This document shows positions 7,236 to 31,975 of a DNA stretch of 64,000 nt, one piece after another. Position 1 is the stretch's first letter. Each line of letters begins with the position of its first letter. Origin of the DNA: a virus (lineage: Duplodnaviria; Heunggongvirae; Uroviricota; Caudoviricetes); the IMG/VR virus record IMGVR_UViG_3300042400_000444, one strand, 5' to 3'. The notes beneath the pieces are model-generated. The model was not told the DNA's origin. It did not search any database and saw nothing but the letters and a program-made list of their open reading frames with translations. Both the position numbers and the translations under genes were made by a program.

Positions 7236-7289
7236 TAGTTAATGTATAATGGGGGCGCAATGCCCCCAATTCGATTAAAGGATAATTCT

Positions 7290-8817: not shown

Positions 8818-10020
8818 GTGTCAACCGTTATTAACATTGTACCCGACAATTTATCAAACAGAGACTATTACTGTTCGATGAAGTTTCGTATGCTGAAAGT
8901 GGATATCGAATCGGGTACTACTTATAATTGTCATGCGGCAACTCCTCATAAAATTGATTTTAATTGGTTACGTGCTCATCCAGGACAATTATTTAATTCG
9001 GAAATTAATATAACTGAACGTCGTATGATGTTAGAAAATCAACGTAATGCTAGTTGTGAACAAAATTGTTGGCCTGCTGAGGATATAAGTGCAATCAGTC
9101 CTCGGCTTTTGCAAGAAGGCACTAAAAAAACTCATACTGAAATAATAGCATCTCCTGAAATTTTAGATTTAACTATAGGTTCTAATTGTAATTTATCATG
9201 TTCATATTGCTGTAAAGAATTTAGTAGTTCGTGGCGTAATGATATTTTACAAAATGGCGATTATTTATTAACTGATGATAATAAACGATACAGTGTGAAT
9301 TCGACAGACAGAATTCTAAACAAACTTAGTTATAATAAAATTCATAATAGTAAATCAATACAATACTTGTACAATGAAATAACTTTATGGAGTGCAGATC
9401 TTAAACAACTTGTAATTACCGGTGGTGAACCATTTCTAGATAATACTTTATTAGATATCATTGACTCAGCCAAGTCAATTCCGATAATAGAAATTTATAC
9501 AGGACTAGGAGTCAATCCTTCGAGGTTTGCTCGAATACTAAAACAATTATCATTATTTAAAAATATCATATTAATTATAAGTGCCGAGGGAATAATGCAA
9601 TTTTTGGAATTTAATCGGTATGGGATTGACTGGGAAGAATTTAAACAAAAAATAGTTCAACTTGAAAATTCTGGAATTGACTTTAAATTTCAATCTACTA
9701 TTACTAATTTAACATTATTTGGATTTGCTGACTTTTATAAATATTTTAATCAACACCGAATCGAATTAAATTTTGCTTATCAACCCAACATGATGGCACC
9801 GTATGTACTTGATCCGGCAAGTAAACAAATAATTTTAGATACACTCCAAAAAATATTGCCAGAATCGGAATTTAAAAAAATACAAATGTCGATTAATCAA
9901 ACTCCAACTAACTTGCAGAGAATTAATATAAAAGAATTTTTAACGGAATTTACAAGACGTAGACCGGATATCAGCACAGATATCTTTCCAAAGTCATTTA
10001 TAAATTGGATCAATGAATAA
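8818..10020 (+). CDS. radical SAM enzyme (paralogue A)
   Basis: CNLSCSYC is a CxxxCxxC motif. GGEPFL glycine-rich SAM motif. N-terminal C..K..CH motif shared with the ORF at 24302. GTG start immediately after the upstream stop. Confidence 0.8.
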   Translation: MSTVINIVPDNLSNRDYYCSMKFRMLKVDIESGTTYNCHAATPHKIDFNWLRAHPGQLFNSEINITERRMMLENQRNASCEQNCWPAEDISAISPRLLQEGTKKTHTEIIASPEILDLTIGSNCNLSCSYCCKEFSSSWRNDILQNGDYLLTDDNKRYSVNSTDRILNKLSYNKIHNSKSIQYLYNEITLWSADLKQLVITGGEPFLDNTLLDIIDSAKSIPIIEIYTGLGVNPSRFARILKQLSLFKNIILIISAEGIMQFLEFNRYGIDWEEFKQKIVQLENSGIDFKFQSTITNLTLFGFADFYKYFNQHRIELNFAYQPNMMAPYVLDPASKQIILDTLQKILPESEFKKIQMSINQTPTNLQRINIKEFLTEFTRRRPDISTDIFPKSFINWINE

Positions 10021-10475
10021 TGTGGTATAACAAAGTAGTACAAAATATTGGCACGTTACCTGACTTTATTGACTTCTATAGCAACGAATTGGATCAAGCA
10101 AAACGTGAAGTTAAGGTATACGGCAATATTGAAAAAGGGCTAGCATCATTGCCCGGAGTTACAGAGCAACGGTTCAATCAGTTACAGGAGATTGAAGCAG
10201 TATTGAACTTTCTCAACATCAAACTTCGCAAAATCCGCCAAGACCACTACAAAAAGTATCTCGAAAGCTACGCACGTGCGTTAACTTCTCGCGATGCTGA
10301 AAAGTATGTCGATGGTGAAAGCGAAGTAATTGATATGGAAACTATTATCAACGAAGTCGCACTATTGCGCAACAAGTGGCTTGGCATCATGAAAGGGCTA
10401 GAAGCAAAATCATACATGATCGGACATATTGTTAGACTGCGTACAGCAGGAATGGAAGATGCAACAGTCAATTAA
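10020..10475 (+). CDS. uvsY: UvsY-like recombination mediator
   Basis: 151 aa. The C-terminal NKWLGIMKGLEAKSYMIGHIVRLR resembles T4 UvsY LQYWGILLDFCSGALDAIKSRGFAIKHIQDMR. Confidence 0.45.
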   Translation: MWYNKVVQNIGTLPDFIDFYSNELDQAKREVKVYGNIEKGLASLPGVTEQRFNQLQEIEAVLNFLNIKLRKIRQDHYKKYLESYARALTSRDAEKYVDGESEVIDMETIINEVALLRNKWLGIMKGLEAKSYMIGHIVRLRTAGMEDATVN

Positions 10476-10725
10476 TCCAGTAGACGAATTATTAGAGCAA
10501 TGGGAAGAAATGAAATATTGTTCCTCTCATATTACTCCAACAGATGACATCGACATATTAGATTATATGCGTCGCAAAGGGCAACTTATGGCATATTCAC
10601 AAGAATTGCGCTATGCAAGGTTGCAGAATAATACAGAAGTTGAAGCAGAGTATACAACAAAATTTATAGAAGCATACACTAACTTCAGCAGAGACTTTAT
10701 TTTTAGGATTTTAAAAAATGGCTAG
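10429..10725 (+). CDS. hypothetical protein (start uncertain, possibly ATG at 10459)
   Basis: ORF overlaps the end of uvsY. Confidence 0.3.
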   Translation: MLDCVQQEWKMQQSINPVDELLEQWEEMKYCSSHITPTDDIDILDYMRRKGQLMAYSQELRYARLQNNTEVEAEYTTKFIEAYTNFSRDFIFRILKNG

Positions 10726-11614
10726 ACATGCACTTAGGGTATTAAATCAACTCAGAGAATACGATAGTTTTCTTGACAGTTTACACACAATTGTAGACAT
10801 GGGTTGCGGAACCGGCGAAGACATTACGTGGTGGGCAACATTAGAAACACGTGATGACCCACCAGTACCACACAATTATAATTGTTTTGCTGTTGATCGC
10901 GACCCTGCTAAACTAGATCAAGTGCCTGATCTTAAAAATATACACAAAACTAAACAAGATTTTAATACACGTTGCATACCCGTACAAGCTGATTTAATGT
11001 GGGCACATGATAGTTTACAGTATAGCACTAACCCAATCGAAACATTAAAAGTATGGAATGAGCAAATGAATGTTGATGCTATGCTAGTATTGAGCATACC
11101 GCAACATTCCGGAGTTGCAGACAATAGGTACTATAGTCGTACACATAGCGGATGTTTTCATAACTTTACTCCGACTAGTTTAATTTATATGCTTGCAGTA
11201 AATGGATTTGATTGTAAAGATGCATATATGCTTAAAGAATTTAATGATCCGTGGATTCATATTGCTGTATACAAATCAGATGTTGCACCGAAAGATGCAG
11301 ATACAACGTCGTGGCTTGATTTAATTGATAGTGGATTATTGAATCAGACTGTAATCAATTCAATTACTTCATATGGTTATTTGCGCCAAGAGGATATTTT
11401 ATATCCATGGTTAGATAAAGAGAACTATTTTATTGATTATGTAAGCCAACAGACAGTAATTCCTGCAGAAGCTGTACACAATGATGCTGGTGTAGTTAAT
11501 ACTAAAAAACAAGCCAAAAAATCTACAGTAAAGCAAGCGAAACCAACAAGGGTAGAAACTACAATAGCAAAACCGGTTGGTGTAATGCGTCCACCTAAGA
11601 AAAACTATGATTAA
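10718..11614 (+). CDS. class I SAM-dependent methyltransferase
   Basis: VDMGCGTGED motif I. Confidence 0.6.
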   Translation: MARHALRVLNQLREYDSFLDSLHTIVDMGCGTGEDITWWATLETRDDPPVPHNYNCFAVDRDPAKLDQVPDLKNIHKTKQDFNTRCIPVQADLMWAHDSLQYSTNPIETLKVWNEQMNVDAMLVLSIPQHSGVADNRYYSRTHSGCFHNFTPTSLIYMLAVNGFDCKDAYMLKEFNDPWIHIAVYKSDVAPKDADTTSWLDLIDSGLLNQTVINSITSYGYLRQEDILYPWLDKENYFIDYVSQQTVIPAEAVHNDAGVVNTKKQAKKSTVKQAKPTRVETTIAKPVGVMRPPKKNYD

Positions 11615-12371
11615 TAAAGTTGTACTTGTGACCGGCGGGTTTGACCCGCTTCATTCCGGGCATATAGAATATTTCAAAGCTGCTAAAGCACTTGGCAAGA
11701 TACTTGTTGTTGGTGTGAATAGTGATGCCTGGGTAGCTCGCAAGAAGGGCAGAGCATTTATGCCATCTACTGAACGTATTGCTATTATTGAAAACTTAAA
11801 GATGGTTGATCATTGCATATTGTTTAATGATAATGATAACACAGCCATTGAGGCAATTAATAACGTAAAACTAATGTACCCTAACAGTCAAATTATATTT
11901 GCCAACGGTGGCGACAGAACAGCTAATAATATTCCAGAAATGATAGTCAATGATATAGTATTTAAATTTGGCATCGGCGGCGGTAATAAGCTCAACAGTA
12001 GCAGTTGGATATTAGATGAGTGGAAAGCACCTAAAACTGACCGAGAATGGGGCTATTATCGTGTATTACATGACGTTCCGGGCCTAAAAGTGAAAGAATT
12101 AACCATTGATCCGGGCAAGCGCCTAAGTATGCAGAAACATTACAATAGATCTGAATTATGGTTTATTGCAGATGGTGAGGCAACGGTTAGTGAATATAGC
12201 ATTGTTTATCCAACTGCTCTACAAAATCCACATCTACCTAAACATTCGACCCATCGCATACCAGAAGAACAATGGCATCAACTTGCTAACCCATACGACA
12301 GACCCGTTCGCATAATTGAAATACAATATGGCGATATCTGTGTTGAGGATGACATAGAACGTAAAGCATAA
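11607..12371 (+). CDS. cytidylyltransferase-family nucleotidyltransferase fused to a cupin domain
   Basis: GGFDPLHSGH (HxGH nucleotidyltransferase motif, TagD/RfaE-II family). C-terminal cupin-like segment LSMQKHYNRSELWFIADGEA. Confidence 0.6.
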   Translation: MINKVVLVTGGFDPLHSGHIEYFKAAKALGKILVVGVNSDAWVARKKGRAFMPSTERIAIIENLKMVDHCILFNDNDNTAIEAINNVKLMYPNSQIIFANGGDRTANNIPEMIVNDIVFKFGIGGGNKLNSSSWILDEWKAPKTDREWGYYRVLHDVPGLKVKELTIDPGKRLSMQKHYNRSELWFIADGEATVSEYSIVYPTALQNPHLPKHSTHRIPEEQWHQLANPYDRPVRIIEIQYGDICVEDDIERKA

Positions 12372-12378
12372 ATACACT

Positions 12379-13680
12379 ATGCGCAAATTTATTGACCTTA
12401 TTAAACTAACCGAAGCAATGGCACAACCAACAGTAGACGAATTTGCGTCTATGAAAGCAATCATTGCAGGCAAAATTAAACAATTACCTGATGATGATGA
12501 AACTGCTAAAGCACTTCGCGAAATCGAAGACTTGCTTGCACACGTTGGTGGCGGTGGCACAGGTGGTAAGATTGGTATGATCAATGGCGAACTTGCTAAG
12601 ATTAGCGATCCAACAGTACAAGCCGCACAAAAAGAACTTGCACGTTACATTTTAAGTTTAGATATGACCCCAGCTCAACGTGATGAACTATTTAAACTAT
12701 GGCGCGAAGATAAACTTGTTGACCGTGCTAAACTATTAAGCAAAGGTAAGAAAACATTTGCTGACATTGTTAACAGTTATCACAGCAACCCAGCTATTAA
12801 AGAGCTTACGAATGATTTAATGCGCATAGCTGCATTAGGACAAGGCAAGGGTGAGTTTGCATTATGTGTACTAAGCAAAAGCATCAGCAAACCACCTAAG
12901 GGAGATTTGTTAGTTGATGGCCGCAAGATTGAAGTTAAGACAACAGATGGTGGTGCTGGCCGCTTTACTGACCAAGAAGTACGTCCAGGCAAAGGTTTCG
13001 AACAAGCCGCACGTGAACTAACTGACTTTGTTGTAAACAATGAAGAAACTCCGTTTGCACTTCCTGGAAGTGGATTAAGTCTTGCTTATGCGGCTAAGAT
13101 TGCAAGTCAAATGGCAGACACAGATAAATTTGTTACATTATGTAAAAACGTAATTAATATTATTTTTGATAGTAGTGACACCTCAGCAGTAAACAGAATC
13201 AGCGACGCAATTAAATCAGGTAACGCAGGTGCAGCATTACAAGAATATGCACAACTAAGTTTTAACTATTACATGAGTAAGAAAGACGACGAAGGTGTAT
13301 TATACATTAACGTAACTAAAGACCCGATATCAATGGTTTACTTTGTTGATGCAAGCGAACTAGCAGCAAGTGGTCTACGTCTACATGCCGGTACAGTATA
13401 CATTACAAGTGTTGATGATATACGTCTACCTTACCCGCAGATGGAGATTGTTGATACTACGTTTGGTGCTAATGCCGCAGCCGCAACAGCTAAAAAAGCC
13501 GCAACCGCAGAAAAGAAAGCTGCCAAGGCAACAGCAGATGCAATACGTAAACAAGTAGATGGAACCACTCCTACCACAGGGCTGACTCCTCCTGGTGCAG
13601 TATCTACTCCTGCTACGGTCATTGACCGTGCTACTCGTCCAGGTTCACAAATATCCGAACATAGGCGAGAAAGACGTTGA
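12379..13680 (+). CDS. hypothetical protein with possible PD-(D/E)xK-like motif and A/K/T-rich basic tail
   Basis: 433 aa. GDLLVDGRKIEVK is a D...ExK pattern. The C-terminal AAAATAKKAATAEKKAAKATA tract is histone-H1-like. Confidence 0.5.
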   Translation: MRKFIDLIKLTEAMAQPTVDEFASMKAIIAGKIKQLPDDDETAKALREIEDLLAHVGGGGTGGKIGMINGELAKISDPTVQAAQKELARYILSLDMTPAQRDELFKLWREDKLVDRAKLLSKGKKTFADIVNSYHSNPAIKELTNDLMRIAALGQGKGEFALCVLSKSISKPPKGDLLVDGRKIEVKTTDGGAGRFTDQEVRPGKGFEQAARELTDFVVNNEETPFALPGSGLSLAYAAKIASQMADTDKFVTLCKNVINIIFDSSDTSAVNRISDAIKSGNAGAALQEYAQLSFNYYMSKKDDEGVLYINVTKDPISMVYFVDASELAASGLRLHAGTVYITSVDDIRLPYPQMEIVDTTFGANAAAATAKKAATAEKKAAKATADAIRKQVDGTTPTTGLTPPGAVSTPATVIDRATRPGSQISEHRRERR

Positions 13681-13737
13681 CATTCAGGTAATTCCGTGTT
13701 ACAATAGTACTTTAAATAACAACTTAGGGTATATATT

Positions 13738-14007
13738 ATGGCAAACAAAATAGCGTCAGTTGAAAAATACAACATTGATAACTGTGATGCTGTATTTGGT
13801 GGTAATCGATTCCAATTAATTTTAGCCGCAGGTGTTCGAGCACATGAGATTGCAAAAGCTCGTGTAACTGCATCACGTAACGCAGGAACAATTGCAGATC
13901 AACCTAAGTATGCAAATCTTCCAGCAGTGCAAGCATTGCTTGATGTAGAAGCAGGTACCTGTGGTGTAGAATACTTAACTAAAGTCGGCAAGCAAATAAG
14001 ACAATAA
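13738..14007 (+). CDS. rpoZ: RNA polymerase omega subunit (RpoZ)-like protein
   Basis: NRFQLILAAGVRAHEIA matches the RpoZ core NRFDLVLVAARRARQ. 89 aa, typical RpoZ size. RBS present. Confidence 0.5.
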   Translation: MANKIASVEKYNIDNCDAVFGGNRFQLILAAGVRAHEIAKARVTASRNAGTIADQPKYANLPAVQALLDVEAGTCGVEYLTKVGKQIRQ

Positions 14008-14014
14008 TTTATCC

Positions 14015-14089
14015 GGGCCTGTAGCTTAATGGTAAAGCGGAGAACTCATAATTCTAGGAGTGCTAGTTCAATTCTAGCCAGGCCCACCA
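14015..14089 (+). tRNA. tRNA-Met/Ile2 (anticodon CAT)
   Basis: 7-bp acceptor GGGCCTG/CAGGCCC, D-arm GCTT..AAGC, anticodon loop CTCATAA, T-loop TTCAATT, encoded CCA. Confidence 0.75.
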
Positions 14090-14098
14090 AACAACACT

Positions 14099-14173
14099 AC
14101 CCCGGTGGTCCAAGGAATGGGCACCGTTCTTCTAAAGCGGCTTATATTGGTTTGAATCCAATCCGGGGTACCA
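14099..14173 (+). tRNA. tRNA-Arg (anticodon TCT)
   Basis: Acceptor ACCCCGG/CCGGGGT, anticodon loop CTTCTAA, T-arm ATTGG-TTTGAAT-CCAAT, CCA. Confidence 0.7.
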
Positions 14174-14196
14174 ATATTTAAATATAAGGAAATATA

Positions 14197-14397
14197 ATGT
14201 CAGATTTAAATGAATATGATTATGAACAAGCAATGGCAGAATTTTTAGCTAACGGTGGCGAAGTAAAACAAATCGCCCGTGGCGTACAAAGTGAAACAGC
14301 AACAACAAACTTCTGGGGTGCACCAAAGAAAAAAGCCGCAGTAGAAGCAGTAAGTGAACTGGGCGATACTGCTGGAATTGACATAAACGATGTTTAG
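14197..14397 (+). CDS. hypothetical small protein
   Basis: 66-aa ORF with RBS AAGGAAATATAATG. Confidence 0.35.
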   Translation: MSDLNEYDYEQAMAEFLANGGEVKQIARGVQSETATTNFWGAPKKKAAVEAVSELGDTAGIDINDV

Positions 14398-15124
14398 CTT
14401 TTTTAAAAAGAAACTAATATTGGTCGGCAGTCGTCATAACTTGTCGGATATCAGCGTAATTGCGACAATGAATAATTATAAGATTGTTGGAATATTAGAT
14501 AAACATTATTGGGGCAATACTCCGGAGATTTGTGGTATTCCTGTGATAGGGTCTGAAGAGGAATTACTAGTACCTAATAATAAATGGGCAAAGTGTAATT
14601 TCTTTCCAGCAAATTGGTGGGATGGTAAACAAGCACGTGGACAAGAGTTTGATGCAGATGCACTTAGACGAGACCGATTGGAGTTACTCGACAAGTCTGG
14701 AGTCAATGTAGTGAATTTAATATCGAAAGAAGTGCATTGGTTTCATAATAAATCAAATTTAGTAATGGGTAAGGGAATATTAATTTTAAGTAATTCTAGC
14801 ATAGGCGAGAATATAACTATAGGCGACTACAGTGTAATTGATTGGGACGTTCGAATAAACAATACTGAGATTGGCCGTAATAGTATTGTTGGTACAGGAA
14901 GTTTATTGGCGCATGTTAAGGTTGGTGATAATGTTCGTATAGGTGCTAGGTGTACATTGATACCTAGTAGAAAAAAAGACTTGCTCACGATAGGAAATAA
15001 TGCTATTATATATCTTGTTAGTTTAGTATTAGATGACGTTGCAGAGAATGGAATTTATACAATGCACGGTAAAACTAGACAAAGATTCAAAAAATCACCG
15101 GATATAACACCGGTTCAAAAATAA
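14390..15124 (+). CDS. hexapeptide-repeat (left-handed beta-helix) acetyltransferase, NeuD/PglD-like
   Basis: C-terminal [IV]G..x repeats (IGENITIGDYSVIDWDVRINNTEIGRNSIVG...VKVGDNVRIGARCTL). N-terminal Rossmann-like region. Confidence 0.6.
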   Translation: MFSFFKKKLILVGSRHNLSDISVIATMNNYKIVGILDKHYWGNTPEICGIPVIGSEEELLVPNNKWAKCNFFPANWWDGKQARGQEFDADALRRDRLELLDKSGVNVVNLISKEVHWFHNKSNLVMGKGILILSNSSIGENITIGDYSVIDWDVRINNTEIGRNSIVGTGSLLAHVKVGDNVRIGARCTLIPSRKKDLLTIGNNAIIYLVSLVLDDVAENGIYTMHGKTRQRFKKSPDITPVQK

Positions 15125-15149
15125 AAGATAAATAATTAGATAAAGTGCT

Positions 15150-15178
15150 TGACAAAGATATAAATAGAATATATAATA
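15150..15178 (+). promoter_or_regulatory. sigma70-type promoter
   Basis: TTGACA-N17-TATAAT (cttgacaaagatataaatagaatatataat). Confidence 0.5.
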
Positions 15179-15378
15179 GCAGCATAGTAAGAAATTAATT
15201 AAAGGATACGAACGCAAAATGTTTAAAACGTGTAATCAATTTAAGAAATCACCGGTGCAGATACTTGCCACGATGTCTTATTGGTCAGCGATTGAGACAT
15301 TAGGCAGTAATGATCGTACACCGCATAATGAGGGTTTAAGTTAACGTTTATTTTTATATCATAAATGAATTTTTACTT

Positions 15379-15411
15379 AAACCCTAGGATTAATACTTCT
15401 AGGGTTTTTTG
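15379..15411 (+). terminator. rho-independent terminator
   Basis: AAACCCTAGG...CTAGGGTTTTTTG. Confidence 0.65.
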
Positions 15412-15428
15412 CATTTAAGGAGCCGAAG

Positions 15429-15557
15429 ATGGATAAAAAACAAATTGTTCAGAAGCCGACTCCAGAACAAAGGATTGTGCAGTTAGAACAAAAATTAGAA
15501 AGGGTAACAAAACTATTAACAGAAAACGTTAATCTTTTAAAGAAACTTTCTAAGTAG
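15429..15557 (+). CDS. small ORF (42 aa)
   Basis: RBS AAGGAGCCGAAGATG. Lys/Glu-rich, helical-looking. Confidence 0.3.
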   Translation: MDKKQIVQKPTPEQRIVQLEQKLERVTKLLTENVNLLKKLSK

Positions 15558-15766
15558 CAGTACGTGGCATGCGAAACGAGCTCGCGGCACACACGTTAAA
15601 TAGGCAAAGGGGCGGACAAGTGGATGGCATGTTCTTATGTGAACAGAAAATACTTGTTATAATAAAGTACACTAATCGGCAACTAGGTCCCATGCAACGT
15701 GGACTATGTCTTAGGCGAGTAATTAGTGTACTTTATTATACGCATTCATATGAGTGCGTTAACAGT

Positions 15767-15849
15767 TTGTAGATAGTCCTGTTGGGCCAGGAGCCTAGTC
15801 ATGCTAGGTCAAGATCGCAACTTGTTGGGTTCGATTCCCAGTCTACAAT
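15767..15849 (+). tRNA. tRNA-like with apparent CAT anticodon and a long variable arm; no encoded CCA
   Basis: Perfect 7-bp acceptor TTGTAGA/TCTACAA. T-arm TTGGG-TTCGATT-CCCAG. Anticodon arm GCCTA-GTCATGC-TAGGT. 15-nt variable arm CAAG-ATCGCAA-CTTG. Confidence 0.45.
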
Positions 15850-15851
15850 TT

Positions 15852-15896
15852 AACAGGGCTCCTATCTATTGCCTACGGGGATAGCTTAGGAGTTAT
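15852..15896 (+). terminator. imperfect long hairpin followed by a T-rich tract (possible terminator or processing site)
   Basis: GCTCCTATCTAT...ATAGCTTAGGAG stem followed by TTATTTTATAA. Confidence 0.35.
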
Positions 15897-15903
15897 TTTA
15901 TAA

Positions 15904-15981
15904 CTCTCGTTCGCCTAGTCTGGTATGGCACTTGCTTTGGGAGCAAGAAGAACGTAGGTTCAAATCCTACACGAGAGACCA
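15904..15981 (+). tRNA. tRNA-Pro (anticodon TGG)
   Basis: Acceptor CTCTCGT/ACGAGAG, anticodon arm CTTGC-TTTGGGA-GCAAG, T-arm GTAGG-TTCAAAT-CCTAC, CCA. Confidence 0.7.
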
Positions 15982-16044
15982 ATTGTTACAACCGCTGATT
16001 TAAACTTAATTGCAGGCGGATAAAATGCTAAAGGAGGATTAATC

Positions 16045-16107
16045 ATGAACGAACATGATGTTGAGACATGGGGCTTTGGCTTCCCATCTTACGCAAGACA
16101 AAAATAG
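16045..16107 (+). CDS. 20-aa peptide ORF (MNEHDVETWGFGFPSYARQK) with a near-perfect Shine-Dalgarno sequence
   Basis: AAAGGAGG-N7-ATG. Convergent with, and 16 bp from, the 3' end of the class B radical-SAM gene. Confidence 0.3.
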   Translation: MNEHDVETWGFGFPSYARQK

Positions 16108-16122
16108 TACAGAGTAGTTAAG

Positions 16123-18192
16123 TTAACATGAACTAATAGGGATATATTTTTTCTCTTTAGCAGTTTGTTCTAATAGTAGTTTATTTTTTGCTCGGGTCTC
16201 GGAAGAGATAGTTTCGATACAGTTATCGACCCAGCCAGATTGACTTTCGGTAACAATAGTAGCATGAGTACTTTCTTTAGTCCAATAACCAGTACCGGCC
16301 CACTCAAAGTTAAAACTTTTAGTACCAGTCATCCATGGTTCGCCGGGGTGTACTAGTTTGTGTGTAAAGTTACCTGAGAATTTACCAGCATCGTCAATTT
16401 TAAATTGAATAGTATATGCGTGGTCGTCACAGGCTAACATAGATCCGAATTCTGCATGGTCTATTTGTTTATCGGCTGTTTGATTAAATTCAAACCCGCC
16501 TTTGATTAACCATACCATTCTAAGGAAATGCCATATTTCGTTAACGATGCTATTAGCAAATGGTCCTAAGTTAGTGTTAATGATATTAAAATTAAATTCT
16601 TCGTTATCTATAGTGTCAACTGCATATGATGGATTATTAAATTCTATATTATAAAAATTTAATAAATTTGGTCTGTAATGACCATTTATAATATAATCGC
16701 CGTGCTGTTTGCACAGCGTCAACCAGATATTAAGTAATTTTAATCTTATAAGTTTAGATGCTTTATTGTTAGACCAATCCAACGACCACCACCAACCTTC
16801 GTAACGATTATCGGTGGGGCTTACGTCGTAGCGTTGGCGGTTAAATCCGAAATCAGATTGGTCGTTATCGCCAAAGGTCATACCTGGAGATATAACTTGA
16901 ATATTATTTCGATTGTTCCATAGCAACGATAAACTATGTGCAGATGCAATGGCATCTTCATTAGGAAATCCAACAATCCAGTTAACTAGTACCATAATGT
17001 TAGCAGATCTACAATCTTTAAGATTATTGTTAATTTCGTCAAGTGTGATTTTTTTATTCATTAAGTCTAGTACTTTTTGACTACCACTTTCGACCCCAAA
17101 ACTTAGATGTTCGCAACCACTTTGTTGCAACTCAATGAAATAGTCAAGGTCCATACGTCCGTCGCATCGAGCATAACCCATCCATCGGATGTGTAATTGT
17201 TTTTCGATTACTCCTGATGCAAATGCACGTAGTTCTTTAAGATTGCCATTTACGAGGCTGTCGATGAACCATAACGTTTTTACACCGTATGTTTTTACTT
17301 GAAATTCAACTTCGTCTAACAGCGTATGTGCTTGCCTATCGCGAAATTTCCAGAACCAAGTTTCTGTACAAAAACTACATTGGGCAACACACCCCCTGCT
17401 TAGTTCTGCACTGACACCATTGGACGTTTTGTAAATAGATAAATCGTAATCTGTGTAATCGGGCATTGGCAACGTATCTAGATTAAGTCTGGTATTACTA
17501 TACGTTGCTCCTAGTTTAACAGGCATTTCAATGTTGTTTTCGATATTATCTAATATATCTAGGATAGCTTGTTCGCCTTCGCCAGTTACCCAATGGTCAA
17601 CTCCGTCCATTGGTACAAAATGTGGGTCGTGGCATGAGGGCCCACCGACAATAATTTTTATATTAGGTAATCGTTTTTTTAATTCGGCAATTACAAATTT
17701 AGTTGGTTCGATGTTTGTATCGTATAAGCTAAAGCCTACAACAGTTGGGGAACTATCGATAATTTGTGATATGTATTTGATTAGGTATGGGTGTAGTGTA
17801 GGATGGAGTTTTTCATAATAGTCCAACCCTAACCACCACCAGTATTTTGCAGAATCCCATGCATCATCTAAATTAACAGATTTTAACTCGCGATACAATT
17901 CTCCGTTAAAATCGAATATGCTAGTAGCATATCCAGCGGCACGGGTTACAGCACTTAACCTAGCTAAATTATATGGAGGAAAATAAACACCCCAGCACCC
18001 TAATAGGCAGAGAGTAAATTTAATTTTTCGGGTAGCTGTAGTGGTTTGTAAATTTTGAAAATTCCTGCGTTGCCGAGGCACAGCATCTTGATCTTGTTTG
18101 GTTAATAAATTTTCAGCAATCCAGGCGTGTTTATCGGGGATGTCGGGTTGAGTAGTCATACAAATATTTATAGTAATAAAAGAGGTTGACAA
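16123..18192 (-). CDS. B12-binding-domain (class B) radical SAM enzyme
   Basis: 689 aa. SRGCVAQCSFC is a CxxxCxxC motif. The preceding Rossmann-like VVGFSLYDT...IIVGGP is typical of the cobalamin-binding domain of class B rSAMs. The only large minus-strand gene in the window. Confidence 0.85.
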   Translation of the reverse strand: MSTSFITINICMTTQPDIPDKHAWIAENLLTKQDQDAVPRQRRNFQNLQTTTATRKIKFTLCLLGCWGVYFPPYNLARLSAVTRAAGYATSIFDFNGELYRELKSVNLDDAWDSAKYWWWLGLDYYEKLHPTLHPYLIKYISQIIDSSPTVVGFSLYDTNIEPTKFVIAELKKRLPNIKIIVGGPSCHDPHFVPMDGVDHWVTGEGEQAILDILDNIENNIEMPVKLGATYSNTRLNLDTLPMPDYTDYDLSIYKTSNGVSAELSRGCVAQCSFCTETWFWKFRDRQAHTLLDEVEFQVKTYGVKTLWFIDSLVNGNLKELRAFASGVIEKQLHIRWMGYARCDGRMDLDYFIELQQSGCEHLSFGVESGSQKVLDLMNKKITLDEINNNLKDCRSANIMVLVNWIVGFPNEDAIASAHSLSLLWNNRNNIQVISPGMTFGDNDQSDFGFNRQRYDVSPTDNRYEGWWWSLDWSNNKASKLIRLKLLNIWLTLCKQHGDYIINGHYRPNLLNFYNIEFNNPSYAVDTIDNEEFNFNIINTNLGPFANSIVNEIWHFLRMVWLIKGGFEFNQTADKQIDHAEFGSMLACDDHAYTIQFKIDDAGKFSGNFTHKLVHPGEPWMTGTKSFNFEWAGTGYWTKESTHATIVTESQSGWVDNCIETISSETRAKNKLLLEQTAKEKKYIPISSC

Positions 18193-18213
18193 ATAAATTA
18201 AAGAGTGTATAAT
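18186..18213 (+). promoter_or_regulatory. sigma70-type promoter driving the start of the tRNA island
   Basis: TTGACA-N16-TATAAT. Confidence 0.55.
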
Positions 18214-18264
18214 AGCATTTGAAGTTAAGTAATACGCTCTTTAACAGTTTAGAAGTAGTACAAT

Positions 18265-18339
18265 ATCGCTATAGTTTATCGGTTAGAACAACAGGTTTTC
18301 ATCCTGTCGGGCGGAGTTCGACTCTCCGTAGCGATACCA
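18265..18339 (+). tRNA. tRNA-Glu (anticodon TTC)
   Basis: Acceptor ATCGCTA/TAGCGAT, anticodon arm ACAGG-TTTTCAT-CCTGT, T-arm CGGAG-TTCGACT-CTCCG, CCA. Confidence 0.7.
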
Positions 18340-19020
18340 TATTAAAGCACATTGTGAAGCACTATGTAAATAGTATCACGAGGGCCATGTAGTGAGAAGG
18401 CAGTAGCCAAGTCTGGGAAGGCAACTTGTTCGGGATGGAGTCTATAGGTAGGAAGTCATGATCCTACTGGACCGAGTCAGCAAGTCATACGTAGGTTCAA
18501 ATCCTACCTGCTAACATAATGTTTCACAGTGTGCTTTAATATGGTAGTATCAGTTATATGTGAGTCATACACGGGACTGGCGTAAGAAACACATTGGGGC
18601 TCGGAACCCCTGCACATATAACACAATGACACAAAGGTAGTTGCAATCTACCCGGCGTGGTCGCAGACGTATACGGTCTTTTCCGTTCAATTCGGAGTGT
18701 TATTGGATATACCATATAAAAACACATTCTTCAAAGAATACAGGGTTCAATTCCCGGCCGTTGATCACGGAACTGCCAAGGTGGTGAGTGTGTTTCTATA
18801 TGGTAGTAATGGCAGAGGCAAGGATTAATTACCCATGCTGAGCGACCTGGAAGCGGGTGGACAAACGTGACTGTGGGCCACTAAGGTAGTCAACATTACT
18901 CGCCATATAAAAGCACACTTAATGCGTAGGCCACGCAGAGTCATGGATGATAGCATTGCCCCGTAAGGAGCAGTGTCGGTGGGTTCAATTCCCGCATAGT
19001 GTGTTTCTATATGGTTATAT
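18336..19020 (+). repeat. non-coding block with three nested pairs of ~25-bp inverted repeats flanking short tRNA-fragment-like segments
   Basis: Arm consensus ACCATAT(A/T)AAA(G/A)CACA / TGTGTTTCTATATGGT. Plus-sense arms at 18336, 18708, 18903; reverse arms at 18520, 18781, 18993. No ORF of 60 aa or more on either strand. Confidence 0.5.
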
Positions 19021-19106
19021 GCTGTCGCGGTGCAGTAGGAGAGGCACGCTGGTCTGTAAAATCAGTCCCACTGGGTGAATAGGTTCGATTCCTATAGGCA
19101 GCACCA
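19021..19106 (+). tRNA. tRNA-Tyr (anticodon GTA), type II
   Basis: Acceptor GCTGTCG/AGGCAGC (6/7 pairs). Anticodon arm CTGGT-CTGTAAA-ATCAG. Long variable arm TCCCACTGGGTGA. T-arm ATAGG-TTCGATT-CCTAT. CCA. Confidence 0.65.
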
Positions 19107-19466
19107 AGAATTTGCAGAGCGCGGTGCTAGTCTAGCCTCGAGGCATAATCCAAGTTAGTTGCAACTAGCAACAGATTGTGAAAACTAGACAACAAGGTTC
19201 GATTCCTTACTGCATCTTATTTTATGTCGCAGTTCCAGTTACACTAATCTCTCAGTTAAAAGCTGTTAGTGTGTAAAGGATACGAGAAAGTCAACTTCTT
19301 CTGGGTAGACTGTGACGCCAAACACGAGGAGTGTTCACCTCTATAAAAACGAGCCAATATTTTTACACTAAAGGAAAAACAGTTATGAAGGTAACTAAAC
19401 TTTAGTGTCGTCTTTAATCCCATGTATGATTAAGGATAGGCACGTTAAACATCTTTATACATATAT

Positions 19467-19541
19467 GGGGGTATAATTCAATGGCTAGAATATCCGGCTT
19501 TTACCCGGACTATCAGAGTTCAAATCTCTGTGCCCTCACCA
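19467..19541 (+). tRNA. tRNA-Lys (anticodon TTT)
   Basis: Acceptor GGGGGTA/TGCCCTC with G-U pairs, anticodon arm TCCGG-CTTTTAC-CCGGA, T-arm CAGAG-TTCAAAT-CTCTG, CCA. Confidence 0.7.
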
Positions 19542-22345: not shown

Positions 22346-22424
22346 TTCCGCAGAATCCGAGCTAGGCGCACGGACTTGACTGTTAATCAATGATTAGCTG
22401 GGTTCGAATCCCAGATGCGGAGCC
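22346..22424 (+). tRNA. tRNA-Asn (anticodon GTT)
   Basis: Acceptor TCCGCAG/ATGCGGA (6/7), D-stem TCCG/CGGA, anticodon loop CTGTTAA, T-arm CTGGG-TTCGAAT-CCCAG, CCA. Confidence 0.6.
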
Positions 22425-22482
22425 AATATTATTTGGTAGAGCAATAGACTGAGCTAAATAAACATATAACGGAGTTATTGAT

Positions 22483-23106
22483 ATGTTTACTTGTGTGTAT
22501 TGTTCTAAAGTATGTAAAAATGATAATAGTCATCGAAATCATGAAAGACAATGTCCTAAAAATCTTAACAGGATTTATAAAAATGGAATGACTGGTAAAA
22601 CGGCATGGAACAAAGGACTTACAGTTGCTACTGATGAACGAGTGGCTAAAAATGCTATAGCAATTAAAGCAAATGCTAAAGAAATTGGTAAATGTAAAGA
22701 TCCAGAGAAGGAAGTATTACGTAGACAAAAATTGTCAATCGCTGCAAAAAGAAGCGGATTTGGCGGATACAGAGAAAACGCAGGACGCAGTAAAAAATTT
22801 AGAGTGTTAGATTCTTACGGTAAAGAAACAGTTTTACAAAGCACATATGAATTAAAGTGTAGTGAAATATTAAATGAGTTGGGCATTGAATGGATTCGAC
22901 CCAAAGCATTAAAATATGATAATAAAAATTATTTTGCGGACTTTTACTTACCTAAGATAGATATGTATCTTGATCCTAAGAATAGTTATAAAGCAAGATT
23001 AGATTTAGAAAAAATAAACAAAGTTATAGAACAAAATAATGTTAAAGTTGTAATCTTATTAGAAGAACACCTAACATTAGAACATATTAAACAGCTCTGT
23101 AGTTAA
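22483..23106 (+). CDS. putative homing-endonuclease-like protein (zinc finger plus NUMOD-like segment)
   Basis: N-terminal CVYCSKVCKNDNSHRNHERQC zinc finger. GKTAWNKGLT is NUMOD3-like. AT-rich gene inside the tRNA island. Its 3' end overlaps the start of tRNA-Ile. Confidence 0.4.
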   Translation: MFTCVYCSKVCKNDNSHRNHERQCPKNLNRIYKNGMTGKTAWNKGLTVATDERVAKNAIAIKANAKEIGKCKDPEKEVLRRQKLSIAAKRSGFGGYRENAGRSKKFRVLDSYGKETVLQSTYELKCSEILNELGIEWIRPKALKYDNKNYFADFYLPKIDMYLDPKNSYKARLDLEKINKVIEQNNVKVVILLEEHLTLEHIKQLCS

Positions 23107-24301: not shown

Positions 24302-25642
24302 ATGAACGATAATAAAAAAATATGGCCTATTAAATCAGAGACATCGTGCTATTTAAAATGGTCATGGAGCACTATTTTCCTCACTAAAGGTACCACAGCC
24401 AGTTGTCATCGAACTGTACATTCAGATATTGATATTAATAATTTTAATAATTTTCATAATACTCCAAAAAAATTAGATGATCGAAAGCGTATGCTAGCTG
24501 GCAACTGGCCGGAAGAGAGCGAGTCTGATAAATTTGGAATTCCTGGATGTACTTATTGTAAAGATATAGAAGATCATGGTGGCACAAGTGATCGTACAGT
24601 GCAATTACGTCATCTCGAAGCAATGAGTGCAACACAAAATAATATATTGCCCGTAGAATTATTAACAGATCCAACAGCAACGGAAGTAACTCCTACAATA
24701 ATTGAAGTTTATTTTAATAATGTGTGCAACATGGCTTGTTTGTACTGCGGCCCTCATTTTAGTACTATGTGGGAAGAAGAAAATCGGAGATTTGGCATTA
24801 CAGAAGACGACGGTATATTAAATACACCGTTATGGAAACGTAATCCTACTCAATATAGTACGTTGCGTGATGGACTATTTACTTGGTTACGTGAACACGG
24901 AGATAAGATTTGGAACTTCGGTATGTTAGGTGGCGAACCTTTCTTCCAACAAGAATTTGACATGGTATTAGATCATTGGGAAAATTATCCTAATCCAAAT
25001 TTACTATTAACTATAGTTAGTAATTTAAAAATAGAACATACTCGATTTGTTGGTTACATTCAACGATTAAAACGTATGGTAGAAACTGGTAAGATTAAAA
25101 AATTAAATCTTAGTGCTAGTTTAGATTGTTGGGGACCCCCAGCAGAATATATTAGATGGGGATTAAATCTAATAGAGTGGGAGAAGAATTTTAATTATCT
25201 AGCACAAGCGGGGTTCGATGAATGGATTGTTTTGAATGTCAATATTACCATCACTCCATTAAGCATAAGGACATTGCCGGACTTGATTTATAAATTAAAC
25301 GAATTGGATAAACTTAGAGACCCAACACGTCATATTTGTATTAGTTTTATGCACGTTAATTCGCCGACACAACTAAACCCATTATGGTTTGGTGCTGGTG
25401 TATTTACAGAAGATATGATTAAGGTAGTGGATGCAATGCCGACAGGAACACAATACCAGCGTGATTATAAAGAATATATGCAAGGTATTGCTAACAGTAT
25501 AGAACAGACTCCACGAAATCCTGCCGCTATTCTTATGTTAGAAACATATCTAAATGAAATGGACCAGCGCAGGGGAACACATTGGCCAGAATTATTTCCG
25601 TGGCTAGTGAGACAATTTGAGTTAGCCCATTCGGAAATATAA
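24302..25642 (+). CDS. radical SAM enzyme (paralogue B)
   Basis: CNMACLYC is a CxxxCxxC motif. GGEPFF. N-terminal SCYLKW...ASCH motif shared with the ORF at 8818. 446 aa. Confidence 0.8.
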   Translation: MNDNKKIWPIKSETSCYLKWSWSTIFLTKGTTASCHRTVHSDIDINNFNNFHNTPKKLDDRKRMLAGNWPEESESDKFGIPGCTYCKDIEDHGGTSDRTVQLRHLEAMSATQNNILPVELLTDPTATEVTPTIIEVYFNNVCNMACLYCGPHFSTMWEEENRRFGITEDDGILNTPLWKRNPTQYSTLRDGLFTWLREHGDKIWNFGMLGGEPFFQQEFDMVLDHWENYPNPNLLLTIVSNLKIEHTRFVGYIQRLKRMVETGKIKKLNLSASLDCWGPPAEYIRWGLNLIEWEKNFNYLAQAGFDEWIVLNVNITITPLSIRTLPDLIYKLNELDKLRDPTRHICISFMHVNSPTQLNPLWFGAGVFTEDMIKVVDAMPTGTQYQRDYKEYMQGIANSIEQTPRNPAAILMLETYLNEMDQRRGTHWPELFPWLVRQFELAHSEI

Positions 25643-25785: not shown

Positions 25786-25876
25786 GCTCCTGTAGTTTAA
25801 CGGTAAAACAGCGGGCTTATACCCCGTAACAACAGATAATTGGCTGATCAAGGTTCGAATCCTACCACTTCCGCCA
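25786..25876 (+). tRNA. tRNA-like (apparent TAT anticodon, 21-nt variable region) with non-pairing acceptor ends
   Basis: D-arm GTTT-AACGGTA-AAAC, anticodon arm GCGGG-CTTATAC-CCCGT, T-loop TTCGAAT. The 3' tail CACTTCCGCCA has no complementary 5' strand. Confidence 0.3.
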
Positions 25877-26173: not shown

Positions 26174-26250
26174 AGAGATGTAGCATAGTGGCCTAATGCA
26201 CTTGCTTCATACGCAAGCTACCGTAGGTTCAAATCCTACCATCTCTACCA
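26174..26250 (+). tRNA. tRNA-Met (anticodon CAT)
   Basis: Acceptor AGAGATG/CATCTCT, D-arm GCAT-AGTGGCCTA-ATGC, anticodon arm CTTGC-TTCATAC-GCAAG, T-arm GTAGG-TTCAAAT-CCTAC, CCA. Confidence 0.75.
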
Positions 26251-27835: not shown

Positions 27836-28218
27836 TGGAATTTACAATCGACCCAGAGTACTTAACAAGCGTAACTATTCATAAAGAGTGGAACACGTAT
27901 ACACACAATGGTCGCGTACCTACAGCAGAAGAACTTATTTTAATTATTCAAGGCAAGGGCGAGTGTTCGACTACAAGTTCAGAAGATCATCCAGAGTTTG
28001 CTAAGTTGCGCGAGCAGTTGGGTGCAGATGGATATATTCATATCCAGCGAGGTTGGTGGAATGGTGATGAGGTCTTAAAACCGTTTAAACTTAACGGAAG
28101 AAAATTTAAAGTAGGAGCACAGTTTAGCAGCGGTAGTGCAATGGGTACACACCTTGCTGTAAGAGCTAAACACCCCGAGTTATATAAGGATGAATACGAT
28201 GATGAAACCGTGGATTGA
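27829..28218 (+). CDS. hypothetical protein
   Basis: 129-aa ORF. Confidence 0.45.
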   Translation: MVMEFTIDPEYLTSVTIHKEWNTYTHNGRVPTAEELILIIQGKGECSTTSSEDHPEFAKLREQLGADGYIHIQRGWWNGDEVLKPFKLNGRKFKVGAQFSSGSAMGTHLAVRAKHPELYKDEYDDETVD

Positions 28219-28684
28219 AAACGTTAGTATGAAAGACATACAAGTAGGCGAGCACTTTGATGCTGGCACTAATTCTATGCTTATTCAAATTGTTGACCCT
28301 ATTACTCTTTTTCCAACACCAAAGCATACATTTAAAGAAGTGCATCAGTTTAAATTTTTAGATGCAGAAGACTCTGATGTTGCAGAGTACGGTGAAGAGC
28401 CATTGATTAGCGATCAGCAAGCAGAAGCAATTTTGCAGTTACTACAACGTGCGCTGGCCAACCATATGAACATTGTTGTACATTGTCACGCTGGTTTATG
28501 TCGTAGTGGTGCAGTAGTAGAGATTGGTGTTATGATGGGCTTTAGAGATACTGAAAAGTTTCGTAGTCCCAACTTACGGGTTAAACACAAATTAATGAAG
28601 TTGCTCGGGCTAATACACGACCCAGACGAGGAACATAACTGGCGTGATGATTATAGACATCACTTAACTAAAAGCAATATGTAA
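28190..28684 (+). CDS. protein tyrosine / dual-specificity phosphatase
   Basis: VHCHAGLCRSG is an HCx5R(S/T) P-loop signature. Confidence 0.65.
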   Translation: MNTMMKPWIENVSMKDIQVGEHFDAGTNSMLIQIVDPITLFPTPKHTFKEVHQFKFLDAEDSDVAEYGEEPLISDQQAEAILQLLQRALANHMNIVVHCHAGLCRSGAVVEIGVMMGFRDTEKFRSPNLRVKHKLMKLLGLIHDPDEEHNWRDDYRHHLTKSNM

Positions 28685-31492: not shown

Positions 31493-31975
31493 ATGAAAAA
31501 ACTGAATTTCGATGAAGTACGTGATTTTATCAATGCACAAAGTGATGAAACTAAAATCTACATTGGCGGCGATAGTACACGCTTTCGTAAAAATGGTGTA
31601 TGGCATGCAGAATACACTATGGCAATTGTAGTACACATTGATGGAAAACACGGCTGTAAGATATTTGGTGAAAGCTCAACTGAAGTAGATTACGACCAAA
31701 AGCGCAACCGCCCAAGTATGCGTCTAATGAATGAAGTTTTCAAAATTAGTGAACTGTACTTAAAACTACACGAAGTATTAGAAGGGCGCGATGTTGCTGT
31801 ACACTTAGACATCAACCCAAACGAAGCACACGGTTCAAGCTGTGTAGTATCTCAAGCAATAGGTTACATTCGCGGTACTTGCAACGTTATCCCAATGGTT
31901 AAACCGCAAGCATGGGCTGCAAGTTACGCGGCAGATAGACTACATCACGTGCTTAAATCACAAAAAGCGGCATAA
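31493..31975 (+). CDS. hypothetical protein
   Basis: 160-aa ORF with RBS AAGGGCGAGATATG. Confidence 0.45.
   Translation: MKKLNFDEVRDFINAQSDETKIYIGGDSTRFRKNGVWHAEYTMAIVVHIDGKHGCKIFGESSTEVDYDQKRNRPSMRLMNEVFKISELYLKLHEVLEGRDVAVHLDINPNEAHGSSCVVSQAIGYIRGTCNVIPMVKPQAWAASYAADRLHHVLKSQKAA

Follow-up and report, generated by a model that had tools for sequence, protein, structure and literature searches.

An apparently undescribed family of predicted RNA hairpins in the spacer slots of lake-phage tRNA arrays

Introduction

What are the three consecutive segments, each bracketed by inverted repeats, that separate tRNA-Glu(UUC) from tRNA-Tyr(GUA) in the tRNA array of IMG/VR virus record IMGVR_UViG_3300042400_000444? 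The DNA analysed is a 64-kb stretch (64,000 nucleotides) of this tailed phage (Caudoviricetes), hereafter the window, and the segments are termed units U1, U2 and U3. An initial annotation of the DNA had recognized the repeats and offered three readings: tRNA-derived miniature mobile elements, processed structured RNAs with long terminal helices, or products of tRNA-gene decay. By comparison with related contigs and loci (denoted by L-numbers), we show that the units belong to a large, apparently undescribed phage family of predicted RNA hairpins that reside in the spacer slots of lake-phage tRNA arrays. The processed-RNA reading fits best, with selection on the stem at the RNA level on the tRNA-sense strand and a promoter upstream. 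Three features go beyond the initial annotation: the family is widespread among phages, its members are anchored on CCA ends, and the segments between the units are conserved RNAs themselves.

Three units closed by one stem

All three units are closed by a pair of 18-nucleotide (nt) arms with the consensus ACCAUAUWRAARCACAYU on the 5′ side and ARUGUGYUUYWAUAUGGU on the 3′ side (Table 1). The single consensus first described withstood realignment, with six arm copies between 18336 and 19015, and its length shrank from about 25 bp to a conserved 18 nt. A search for TGTGYTTYWATATGGT with up to two mismatches returned these six matches and one other in the rest of the window, which is unpaired and has two mismatches (46595-46610); shuffled windows gave a mean of 0.74 matches, and none of 100 shuffles reached seven. 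The first arm begins on the ACCA of tRNA-Glu and the last lies beside tRNA-Tyr, both as initially placed. The stem of U1 is lengthened to 33 bp (18335-18367 with 18514-18546, 91% complementary). For U1 as a whole, the minimum free energy (MFE) has a z-score of -9.0 against shuffled sequence, and U2 and U3 have MFEs of -32.1 and -44.2 kcal/mol (z -4.7 and -4.8).

The units are not ordinary tRNAs. T-arm-like hairpins, which the initial annotation had pointed out, are present at 18491-18507 (U1), 18741-18757 (U2, where a closed hairpin follows) and 18979-18995 (U3), and default ARAGORN finds zero tRNAs in 18340-19020. The Rfam tRNA model does not match U2 or U3. It scores the U1 loop at 29.8 bits (gathering score 29) over model positions 4-67 with a 49-nt insertion, and the intron mode of ARAGORN (-i) reads the same loop as tRNA-Pro(cgg) with a 37-nt intron. 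The T arm of this payload, as we term the enclosed sequence, is identical at 19 of 19 positions to those of tRNA-Pro (15952-15970) and tRNA-Met (26222-26240), and the U1 loop is a tRNA relic or mimic inside a hairpin loop. Ordinary and intron-bearing tRNAs were rejected on the blank default ARAGORN result and on the U1 loop, which has a 5-bp acceptor stem and no CCA, where a canonical cloverleaf has 7 bp and then the discriminator and CCA. The group I intron model (Intron_gpI) has no match in the unit region, where the U1 insertion is just 37-49 nt; self-splicing group I introns are, to our knowledge, the sole type of tRNA intron in bacteria and phages. A CRISPR array was ruled out, as the repeats alternate in orientation as inverted pairs rather than running as direct repeats. 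Antisense targets of the three payloads are absent from the 64-kb window, in which the only matches are in sense, to T arms.

Table 1 Coordinates of the array and of selected genes in the window
Feature	Position	Strand	Remarks
Predicted sigma-70-type promoter	18186-18213	+	TTGACA, 16-nt spacer, TATAAT; 12/12 consensus matches; upstream of tRNA-Glu and the units
tRNA-Glu(UUC)	18265-18339	+	ARAGORN; Rfam 60.6 bits; discriminator and CCA (18336-18339) are the first 4 nt of the U1 stem
U1 unit	18336-18545	+	Core arms 18336-18353 (ACCATATTAAAGCACATT) and 18528-18545; inverted repeat I1
U1 5′ arm	18336-18368	+	Conserved 18-nt core, then unit-specific extension to ~18367
U1 payload	18396-18516	+	Degenerate tRNA-Pro(CGG)-like; 37-49-nt insertion in anticodon region; 5-bp acceptor stem; no CCA
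U1 3′ arm	18514-18545	+	Conserved core 18528-18545
G1, predicted RNA	18546-18710	+	Separate conserved structured RNA, ~165 nt; own closing helices; T arm 18682-18696
U2 unit	18711-18804	+	Arms 18711-18728 and 18787-18804; 58-nt payload; inverted repeat I2
G2, predicted RNA	18805-18901	+	Second conserved RNA, ~97 nt; closed by AGTAATG/CATTACT helix
U3 unit	18902-19015	+	Arms 18902-18919 (begins GCCA) and 18998-19015; 78-nt payload; inverted repeat I9
tRNA-Tyr(GUA)	19021-19106	+	ARAGORN; Rfam 37.7 bits; begins 5 nt past the U3 3′ arm
HNH-NUMOD3 homing-type endonuclease	3196-3843		Beside terminase
UvsX/RecA-like recombinase	7242-8357		
C2H2 zinc-finger and phage endonuclease-I-like nuclease	22483-23106		Inside the tRNA island
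DSP-type phosphatase	28190-28684		
PF04308/YkuK RNase H-like protein	31493-31975		
Metallophosphoesterase	32220-33116		

A family specific to phage tRNA arrays

One arm pattern scanned against IMG/VR matched at least 120 loci, and the family counts given here rest on the matches listed; a partner arm lies 40-260 nt away in 114 of these loci. The unit set comprises 215 oriented units, 202 of them distinct. tRNAs are present in 116 of 121 loci, with the units on the tRNA strand. When the same pattern was run as a control over 596 Gb of prokaryotic genomes, paired arms were found in only 5 of the 120 matches listed. All five are on short contigs of metagenome-assembled genomes, some of them with sample names that point to lakes, and each contig is itself a dense tRNA array (nine units at most); for this reason the hairpin element appears to be phage-specific.

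The family has no evident precedent in the resources searched. An arm concatemer compared by BLASTN with 50,697 isolated phage records gave no real match, Rfam holds no family that matches the units, and a search of the accessible literature with the arm sequences as text and with keywords returned nothing relevant beyond the analogies cited below.

Stem pairing and conservation

Canonical pairs occupy 95.3% of stem positions across the 202 distinct units. Permuting the partners reduced this to 89.2 +/- 0.27%, with none of 500 permutations reaching the observed value, and sliding the register gave 31-54%. Double-sided compensatory changes occur at 15 of the 18 positions, among them position 8, where 98 units have A-U and 96 have U-A. 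With position 9 left out, the tRNA-sense strand shows 275 G.U pairs against 16 A.C pairs, an asymmetry present at eight stem positions, and position 17 is U.G in 145 units. Because of the compensatory changes and the G.U bias, the stem is predicted to fold as RNA, on the tRNA-sense strand of a precursor transcript.

This strand-specific wobble bears directly on the possibility that the arms act in DNA, as the operator of a dimeric protein, as a promoter for a phage RNA polymerase or as a terminator. A highly conserved motif repeated within an array would suit such a site, and the arms are AT-rich with TTGAAA- and TATAT-like hexamers. The spacing of the half-sites, however, varies from 5 to about 200 bp, the wobble pattern is that of a folded RNA, no U-tract follows the stem, the only plus-strand terminator-like match (18681-18697) is the T arm of G1, and the sole strong promoter is the separate TTGACA/TATAAT element upstream of tRNA-Glu. 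We consider a DNA-level regulatory site highly improbable.

The stem is also unusually uniform in sequence. Among 45 distinct units linked to tRNA-Lys, mean pairwise identity is 94% for the arms, 69% for the tRNAs and 46% for the loops, against a shuffled baseline of 45%; the stem is thus constrained above the level of the tRNAs, with the loops at the random level. Bare hairpins of 41 nt (L017) and 45 nt (L008), with loops of 5-9 nt, follow tRNA-Lys, and so the stem can persist without a payload.

Anchoring on the CCA end

Nearly half of the units (106/215) overlap the upstream ARAGORN tRNA by exactly 4 nt, namely its discriminator and CCA (NCCA). At the other end, the next tRNA starts at -5 to +10 nt of the 3′ arm in 83 of the 215 units, and in 34 of those the arm-terminal GGU provides nt 1-3 of the downstream tRNA. 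A unit follows 50 of 77 tRNA-Lys(UUU), 15 of 81 tRNA-Glu(UUC) and 11 of 71 tRNA-Gln(UUG) genes, and tRNA-Met is the most frequent downstream partner. Arm subtype goes with the preceding tRNA: Lys-linked arms are nearly all of the AUAAAAAC type, and arms behind tRNA-Gln begin with GCCA, which fits the discriminator of that tRNA.

Where no annotated tRNA precedes a unit, positions 2-3 drift to U-A and U.G, and because of these replacements the pairing of CCA with UGG itself appears to be under selection. Together with the promoter upstream, this selection points to an RNA helix formed in the precursor transcript. Leader-trailer pairing around a tRNA, in the order 3′ arm, tRNA and 5′ arm, was considered and rejected, as only 2 of 1786 tRNAs are armed on both sides; the functional pairing is therefore between the 5′ and 3′ arms of one unit.

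Conserved RNAs between the units

The segments between the units hold two further predicted RNAs, G1 and G2. G1 has homologs in L035 (3551-3713, 77% identity) and L149 (3128-3291, 69%), and RNAalifold on the three sequences gives 48 pairs, 18 of which show double-sided compensatory changes. Its T arm covaries, and it also has a 7-nt UUGCAAU loop; in the window, L035 and L149 it always lies between a 3′ arm and a 5′ arm. Rfam has no match for G1. G2, at about 75-100 nt across loci, has homologs in L073, L083, L081 and L268 that align over a highly conserved core, GCGACCURGAAGCG...GGCCAC...AAGGUAGUCAACAUUAC, to which a variable hairpin is optionally added.

The additional internal inverted repeats reported by the initial annotation exist and belong to these two RNAs. 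The AGTAATG/CATTACT pair (18805-18811 and 18894-18900) is part of G2; the other, in G1, needs a corrected position, as TTATATGTG lies at 18554-18562 and not at 18527, with CACATATAA at 18613-18621. Because G1 and G2 run straight into the first nucleotide of the next 5′ arm (the ACCA of U2 in the case of G1), as tRNAs do, the array appears to read tRNA, hairpin, RNA, hairpin, RNA, hairpin, tRNA.

Loop diversity and cassette exchange

Loops range from 5 to about 200 nt (median unit length, 88 nt), and their GC content is tRNA-like at 50%, against 41% for the loci. A T loop is found in about 20% of them, on the sense strand in 26 loops and antisense in 2, and no other shared motif is enriched; most loops are without tRNA features, and BLAST links only 2 of 202 loops to a tRNA, giving little sign that payloads originate from the tRNAs of the arrays. 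If the units were decaying tRNA genes, or incidentally palindromic filler between tRNAs, the degenerate tRNA in U1, the minority of T loops and the weak average folding of the loops (z -0.59 versus -1.68 for tRNAs) would be expected. The conservation and covariation statistics contradict this reading, with arms more alike across phages than tRNA-Lys (94% versus 69%) and compensatory changes at 15 of 18 positions, as do 202 distinct units in more than 120 contigs whose loops mostly lack tRNA features. We give it almost no weight as an account of the family; of the tRNA origin or decay first proposed, what survives concerns the T-loop minority and the tRNA-Pro-like U1 loop, and it does not extend to most loops or to the bare hairpins.

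The loops appear to behave as exchangeable cassettes. BLAST sorts the 202 units into 150 clusters, and loops within one locus are unrelated, those of the window included. In four phage pairs, both flanking tRNAs are 82-100% identical and the enclosed loops are unrelated; in one of these comparisons (L022 versus L089, flanking tRNAs 90-100% identical) the arm subtype differs too. Conversely, 51 pairs with unrelated flanks have loops of 80% identity or more, in many cases 100%, and the loop ACTAAGAGTCCAGGTTCAGAGCGTGGCAT is found behind tRNA-Glu, tRNA-Pro, tRNA-Lys or non-tRNA sequence. Within the arms, positions 8 and 9, near the base, go with the flank and positions 13-18, near the loop, go with the loop, which therefore places crossovers inside the arms. 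Close relatives also differ in unit number. In L243, found through local BLAST, a homologous tRNA-Glu (~82% identical over the stretch) is preceded by the same promoter sequence as in the window and followed, before tRNA-Tyr, by one unit with a different loop, against U1-G1-U2-G2-U3 in the window. Searches for the orthologous region through the neighbouring radical-SAM gene or the exact tRNA-Glu/arm junction string gave too few matches or none.

Such mobility invites comparison with selfish DNA of the miniature inverted-repeat transposable element (MITE) or REPIN type, in which the arms would be terminal inverted repeats for a transposase, an enzyme like the REP-associated transposase RAYT or a homing enzyme, insertion would occur beside NCCA at tRNA junctions and the RNA hairpin would be a by-product of transcription, like that of the Correia elements of Neisseria. 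The replacement of a whole unit, arm subtype included, between L022 and L089 is what this predicts, as are identical loops at unrelated junctions, the varying unit number of close relatives, palindromes resembling empty sites (ACCATATATGGT) at two or three junctions, which are compatible with a TA target, and the recurrence in arrays of homing-type nuclease genes (zinc-finger with endonuclease-I-like; HNH). Yet copies within one genome all differ, with no sign of a replicating master copy, and the G.U-over-A.C asymmetry at eight positions on the transcribed strand is unexpected for double-stranded terminal repeats. Arm subtypes that track the upstream tRNA suggest resident sockets rather than free transposition, the flanks have no consistent target-site duplication, and transposase or RAYT is absent from the 25 commonest neighbour protein clusters and from the scanned open reading frames (ORFs) of the window, in genomes that are incomplete. 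We regard a selfish DNA element as unlikely. The miniature mobile elements of the initial annotation are borne out in that loops, and sometimes whole units, are exchanged; a transposase, a clear target duplication and uniform copies within a genome did not emerge.

The short ACCATATATGGT palindromes occur at tRNA junctions in L029 (7985), L073 (87) and L054 (3093) and look like empty sites, or like units of which only the base is left. About nine loci have ACCATATGGG, and the tRNA-Lys(CUU)-UAU-tRNA-Lys(UUU) junction is ACCAUAUGGG.

Genomic context and candidate partners

The window derives from a large tailed phage, which encodes a large terminase, a gp32-like single-stranded DNA-binding protein, helicases, a primase and a UvsX/RecA-like recombinase. 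The terminase shares 54% identity with its counterparts in the jumbo phages PA5oct and Atu_ph07, and window proteins recur without change in lake metagenomes of the Joint Genome Institute (3300042xxx series), in which one metagenome-assembled genome bears an 'ME2018' sample label that we take to mean Lake Mendota; BLASTN of the window region against the isolated phage records gave no real DNA match. The tRNA island (14.0-29.0 kb) contains 27 tRNAs by ARAGORN, every one on the plus strand. Rfam searches of the whole window at gathering thresholds, of 18200-19500 at E <= 10 and of 14 related loci recovered only tRNAs and, elsewhere, one tmRNA and one group I intron. No convincing plus-strand terminator precedes tRNA-Tyr, where the sole terminator-like match is the G1 T-arm hairpin at 18681-18697, and we infer that the units are co-transcribed with the tRNAs from the upstream promoter, with its 12/12 consensus matches, as one precursor.

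The island probably holds more non-canonical tRNA-like RNAs. One tRNA-like sequence follows tRNA-Tyr (19107-19320), with a T loop at 19196-19206 and no ARAGORN call, and an adjoining element, 19196-19320, is conserved at 96% in L259, at 86% in both L286 and L008 and at 79% in both L099 and L070. Five more T-loop motifs lie outside the default ARAGORN tRNAs (21765, 22401, 25852, 26302 and 26383); 25791-25867 is a weak Rfam tRNA (32.8 bits), and relaxed ARAGORN calls tRNA-Asn at 22347-22425. Clustered genes for radical-SAM proteins (one of them B12-binding, on the minus strand directly upstream of the promoter), a methyltransferase, sugar-nucleotide enzymes and acyltransferases flank and interrupt the island (8818-18192 and 24302-25642). 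Among related contigs, L013 carries a betaproteobacterial-type tmRNA (13913-14302, 137 bits), which hints at a betaproteobacterial host for that phage, and L001 a group I intron (926-1123, 56.9 bits).

Several recurrent genes are candidate, unproven partners of the units (PMC3985635). Genes for a PF04308/YkuK RNase H-like protein (35 of 121 loci), a metallophosphoesterase (beside the tRNA arrays of 28) and a DSP-type phosphatase (15) may form a set for RNA processing or repair. In loci centred on PF04308, units lie within 10 kb in 12 of 45 only, which shows no specific link to the hairpins. Homologs of the C2H2 zinc-finger nuclease inside the island occur in 25 of 121 arrays, and an HNH-NUMOD3 homing-type endonuclease lies beside the terminase gene of the window. 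Proteins combining DUF2828 with DUF7788 (vWA-like, with a MIDAS-type DxSxS motif) occur in 11 of 121 arrays and were not found in the window; the gene for the L035 copy (10795-12261) ends 22 nt before a hairpin unit.

This last association, and the placement of a T arm before a closed hairpin in U2 as in YrlA (PMC4201824), raise the prospect of a protein handle like that of Y RNAs, in which the terminal helix would bind a common protein of small phage ribonucleoproteins (RNPs), the loop would be an effector, decoy or tether, and the tRNAs would supply processing. A conserved 5′/3′ stem around a variable internal module fits this architecture, as do the sense-strand bias of the T-loop motifs (26 versus 2), a stem conserved above the tRNA level, loop families that are 100% identical across different phages, the recurrence nearby of RNA-repair-type phosphoesterase and phosphatase genes, and the DUF2828 and vWA-like gene itself. 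But the Ro60-binding motif GNCGAAN0-1G, which in Y RNA and YrlA lies on the 5′ side of the terminal stem (PMC4201824), is missing from the arms. Rfam Y RNA and YrlA models have no match at E <= 10, a TROVE/Ro60 gene is absent among the window ORFs scanned, and a DUF2828 protein profile finds no Ro60 among PDB sequences at the sequence level. Hairpins without cargo exist, and a handle gives no reason to include the CCA of the upstream tRNA. We consider this explanation unlikely, to the same degree as the selfish element.

A proposed role in tRNA processing

We favour, with moderate confidence, a reading in which the units are cis-acting double-stranded processing signals, by which a tRNA would gain its free 3′ end and a small RNA framed by the hairpin would be released, with the arms doubling as recombination joints. 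The array would be transcribed as a single precursor from the promoter upstream of tRNA-Glu. Each 3′ arm, on emerging, would pair with its own 5′ arm and draw the upstream NCCA into a perfect helix abutting the acceptor stem, and this helix would be read as a sequence-specific double-stranded RNA (dsRNA) processing signal. Its reader might be an enzyme like RNase III or Mini-III, or else a nuclease of the phage, for which the PF04308 RNase H-like protein is one unproven candidate. If the stem were cut, internally or at its base, and RNase P cut at the next tRNA, the upstream tRNA would be left with a free 3′ end, and the same cleavages would release a small RNA in which the conserved stem holds and protects the variable loop. 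In the DNA, the near-identical arms would serve as portable homology, so that crossovers inside them could carry loops from one junction to another and insert or remove modules; such crossovers would account for U1-G1-U2-G2-U3 in the window against a single unit in its close relative.

Several observations count against this proposal. The processing step and its enzyme are purely inferred: genes for RNase III, Mini-III or another dsRNA nuclease were not found in the window, and the ORFs of all loci contain no RNase III signature. Most tRNA-tRNA junctions in the same arrays have no hairpin, with spacers of 5-9 nt, and tRNA maturation therefore does not in general depend on the element. Nor would a plain RNase III site call for nucleotide conservation above that of tRNAs; the conservation therefore calls for a sequence-specific reader or for homogenization, and the uniformity of the arms could also come from concerted evolution by recombination or from selfish mobility. 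Position 9 is an unexplained A.C mismatch in 79 of 202 stems (~40%), nearly all of the Lys-linked arm subtype, and, as the weak average folding of the loops suggests, many of them may not be functional RNAs.

A further idea, which we put forward tentatively, is that the units form a small-RNA cassette system peculiar to large freshwater phages, in which a sequence-specific dsRNA-binding protein or nuclease recognizes the CCA-anchored 18-bp stem and horizontally exchanged payload RNAs are expressed, processed and stabilized. Among these payloads are tRNA-like fragments and further modules 30-150 nt long, and in phage-host conflict they might act as decoys or regulators. The idea fits because the units are linked to tRNA-Lys(UUU), tRNA-Glu(UUC) and tRNA-Gln(UUG), which are classic targets of anticodon nucleases.

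If the processing reading holds, large phages with their own tRNA sets would carry a dedicated, conserved RNA signal to punctuate the array and set the 3′ ends of its tRNAs, a step of which little is understood even in model bacteria, and the units would offer a ready-made frame for expressing arbitrary small RNAs. If the cassette idea holds, they would represent a new class of modular RNA, or RNP, that phages diversify in a way of its own. The family is a testable entry to phage tRNA maturation and to small RNAs of phages, G1 and G2 among them, and may lead to a natural tRNA-plus-hairpin scaffold for expression.

Comparison with known systems

The closest parallel in position is provided by the theta ribozymes of gut phages, which resemble those of hepatitis delta virus (HDV), lie directly 3′ of phage tRNAs and are proposed to mature the tRNA 3′ end (trailer) independently of host RNases; their catalytic core is a conserved double pseudoknot, and an encoded CCA is missing from 95.5% of the tRNAs concerned (PMC10879173). 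The hairpins likewise lie directly 3′ of phage tRNAs (106/215 on NCCA) in the tRNA arrays of uncultivated Caudoviricetes, but they are plain 18-bp helices with a free-form loop and with an encoded CCA inside the helix. HDV-like ribozymes have a nested double pseudoknot with a catalytic C and cleave themselves at their own 5′ end. Rfam ribozyme families do not match the units, and minimal 18-bp hairpins with 5-9-nt loops cannot form the theta core; because they have no ribozyme core, the hairpins would need a protein nuclease.

RNase III and Mini-III stems, such as rRNA operon stalks and T7 R sites, share with the hairpins a long helix built from sequences that flank the RNA to be excised, and the structural prerequisite of an RNase III-type stem, about two helical turns of dsRNA, is present in the units (18 bp, or 33 bp in U1, 95% canonical). 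The BsMiniIII enzyme makes a sequence-specific dsRNA cut at ACC^U, where the base of a terminal stem adjoins a junction (PMC4357697). The hairpin stem has ACCA/UGGU rather than ACCU/AGGU, and cleavage here is putative; unlike in these stems, conservation spans all 18 bp, and the enclosed RNA can be nearly absent.

Among repeats, MITEs and REPINs (Correia/NEMIS, ERIC and REP doublets) consist of inverted short conserved copies around a less conserved spacer, form hairpins on transcription, with RNase III cutting some of them, and mark sites of genome rearrangement. These are elements of chromosomes, where near-identical copies number from tens to hundreds and have no fixed link to tRNA 3′ ends. 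The units have similar terminal inverted arms (18 nt) around a short non-coding core; they differ in numbering 1-9 copies per array stretch, in loops that are all different, in their confinement to phage tRNA arrays, in starting on NCCA and in strand-specific selection on the RNA. Promoter early stem-loop (PeSL) cassettes of T4-type phages are short conserved repeats in hyperplastic regions that act as recombination joints, flank protein-coding ORFs and contain a promoter, whereas the hairpin arms are inverted pairs that flank non-coding payloads and have no promoter.

Bacterial Y RNAs and YrlA also build a terminal stem from both ends around an internal module able to mimic a tRNA (T arm), and are found in phages and near genes for RNA repair or quality control; the hairpins are without a Ro60 motif, a nearby Ro60 gene or a covariance-model match, and their loop is hypervariable rather than a conserved tRNA mimic with a T-AS-D module. 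Hairpin RNAs fused to a tRNA, with ends made by tRNA-processing enzymes, are known from the tRNA-microRNA-encoded RNAs (TMERs) of murine gammaherpesvirus 68 (MHV68) and from the bacterial 3′ external transcribed spacer RNA 3′ETS-leuZ. TMERs are those of a eukaryotic virus that has Pol III and Dicer at its disposal, and 3′ETS-leuZ is a single host locus; the phage hairpins, unlike both, have a family-wide conserved stem and exchange cassettes.

The combination of CCA-end anchoring, a stem more conserved than the tRNAs and cassette-swapped loops is, as far as we found in Rfam 15 and the searchable literature, without a described counterpart. By the tests that define each class, the units are not tRNAs, YrlA or Y RNAs, HDV-like ribozymes, CRISPR repeats or replicating MITEs, and they share only the structural prerequisite of RNase III-type stems. 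Their place is among the cis-acting hairpin or palindromic elements.

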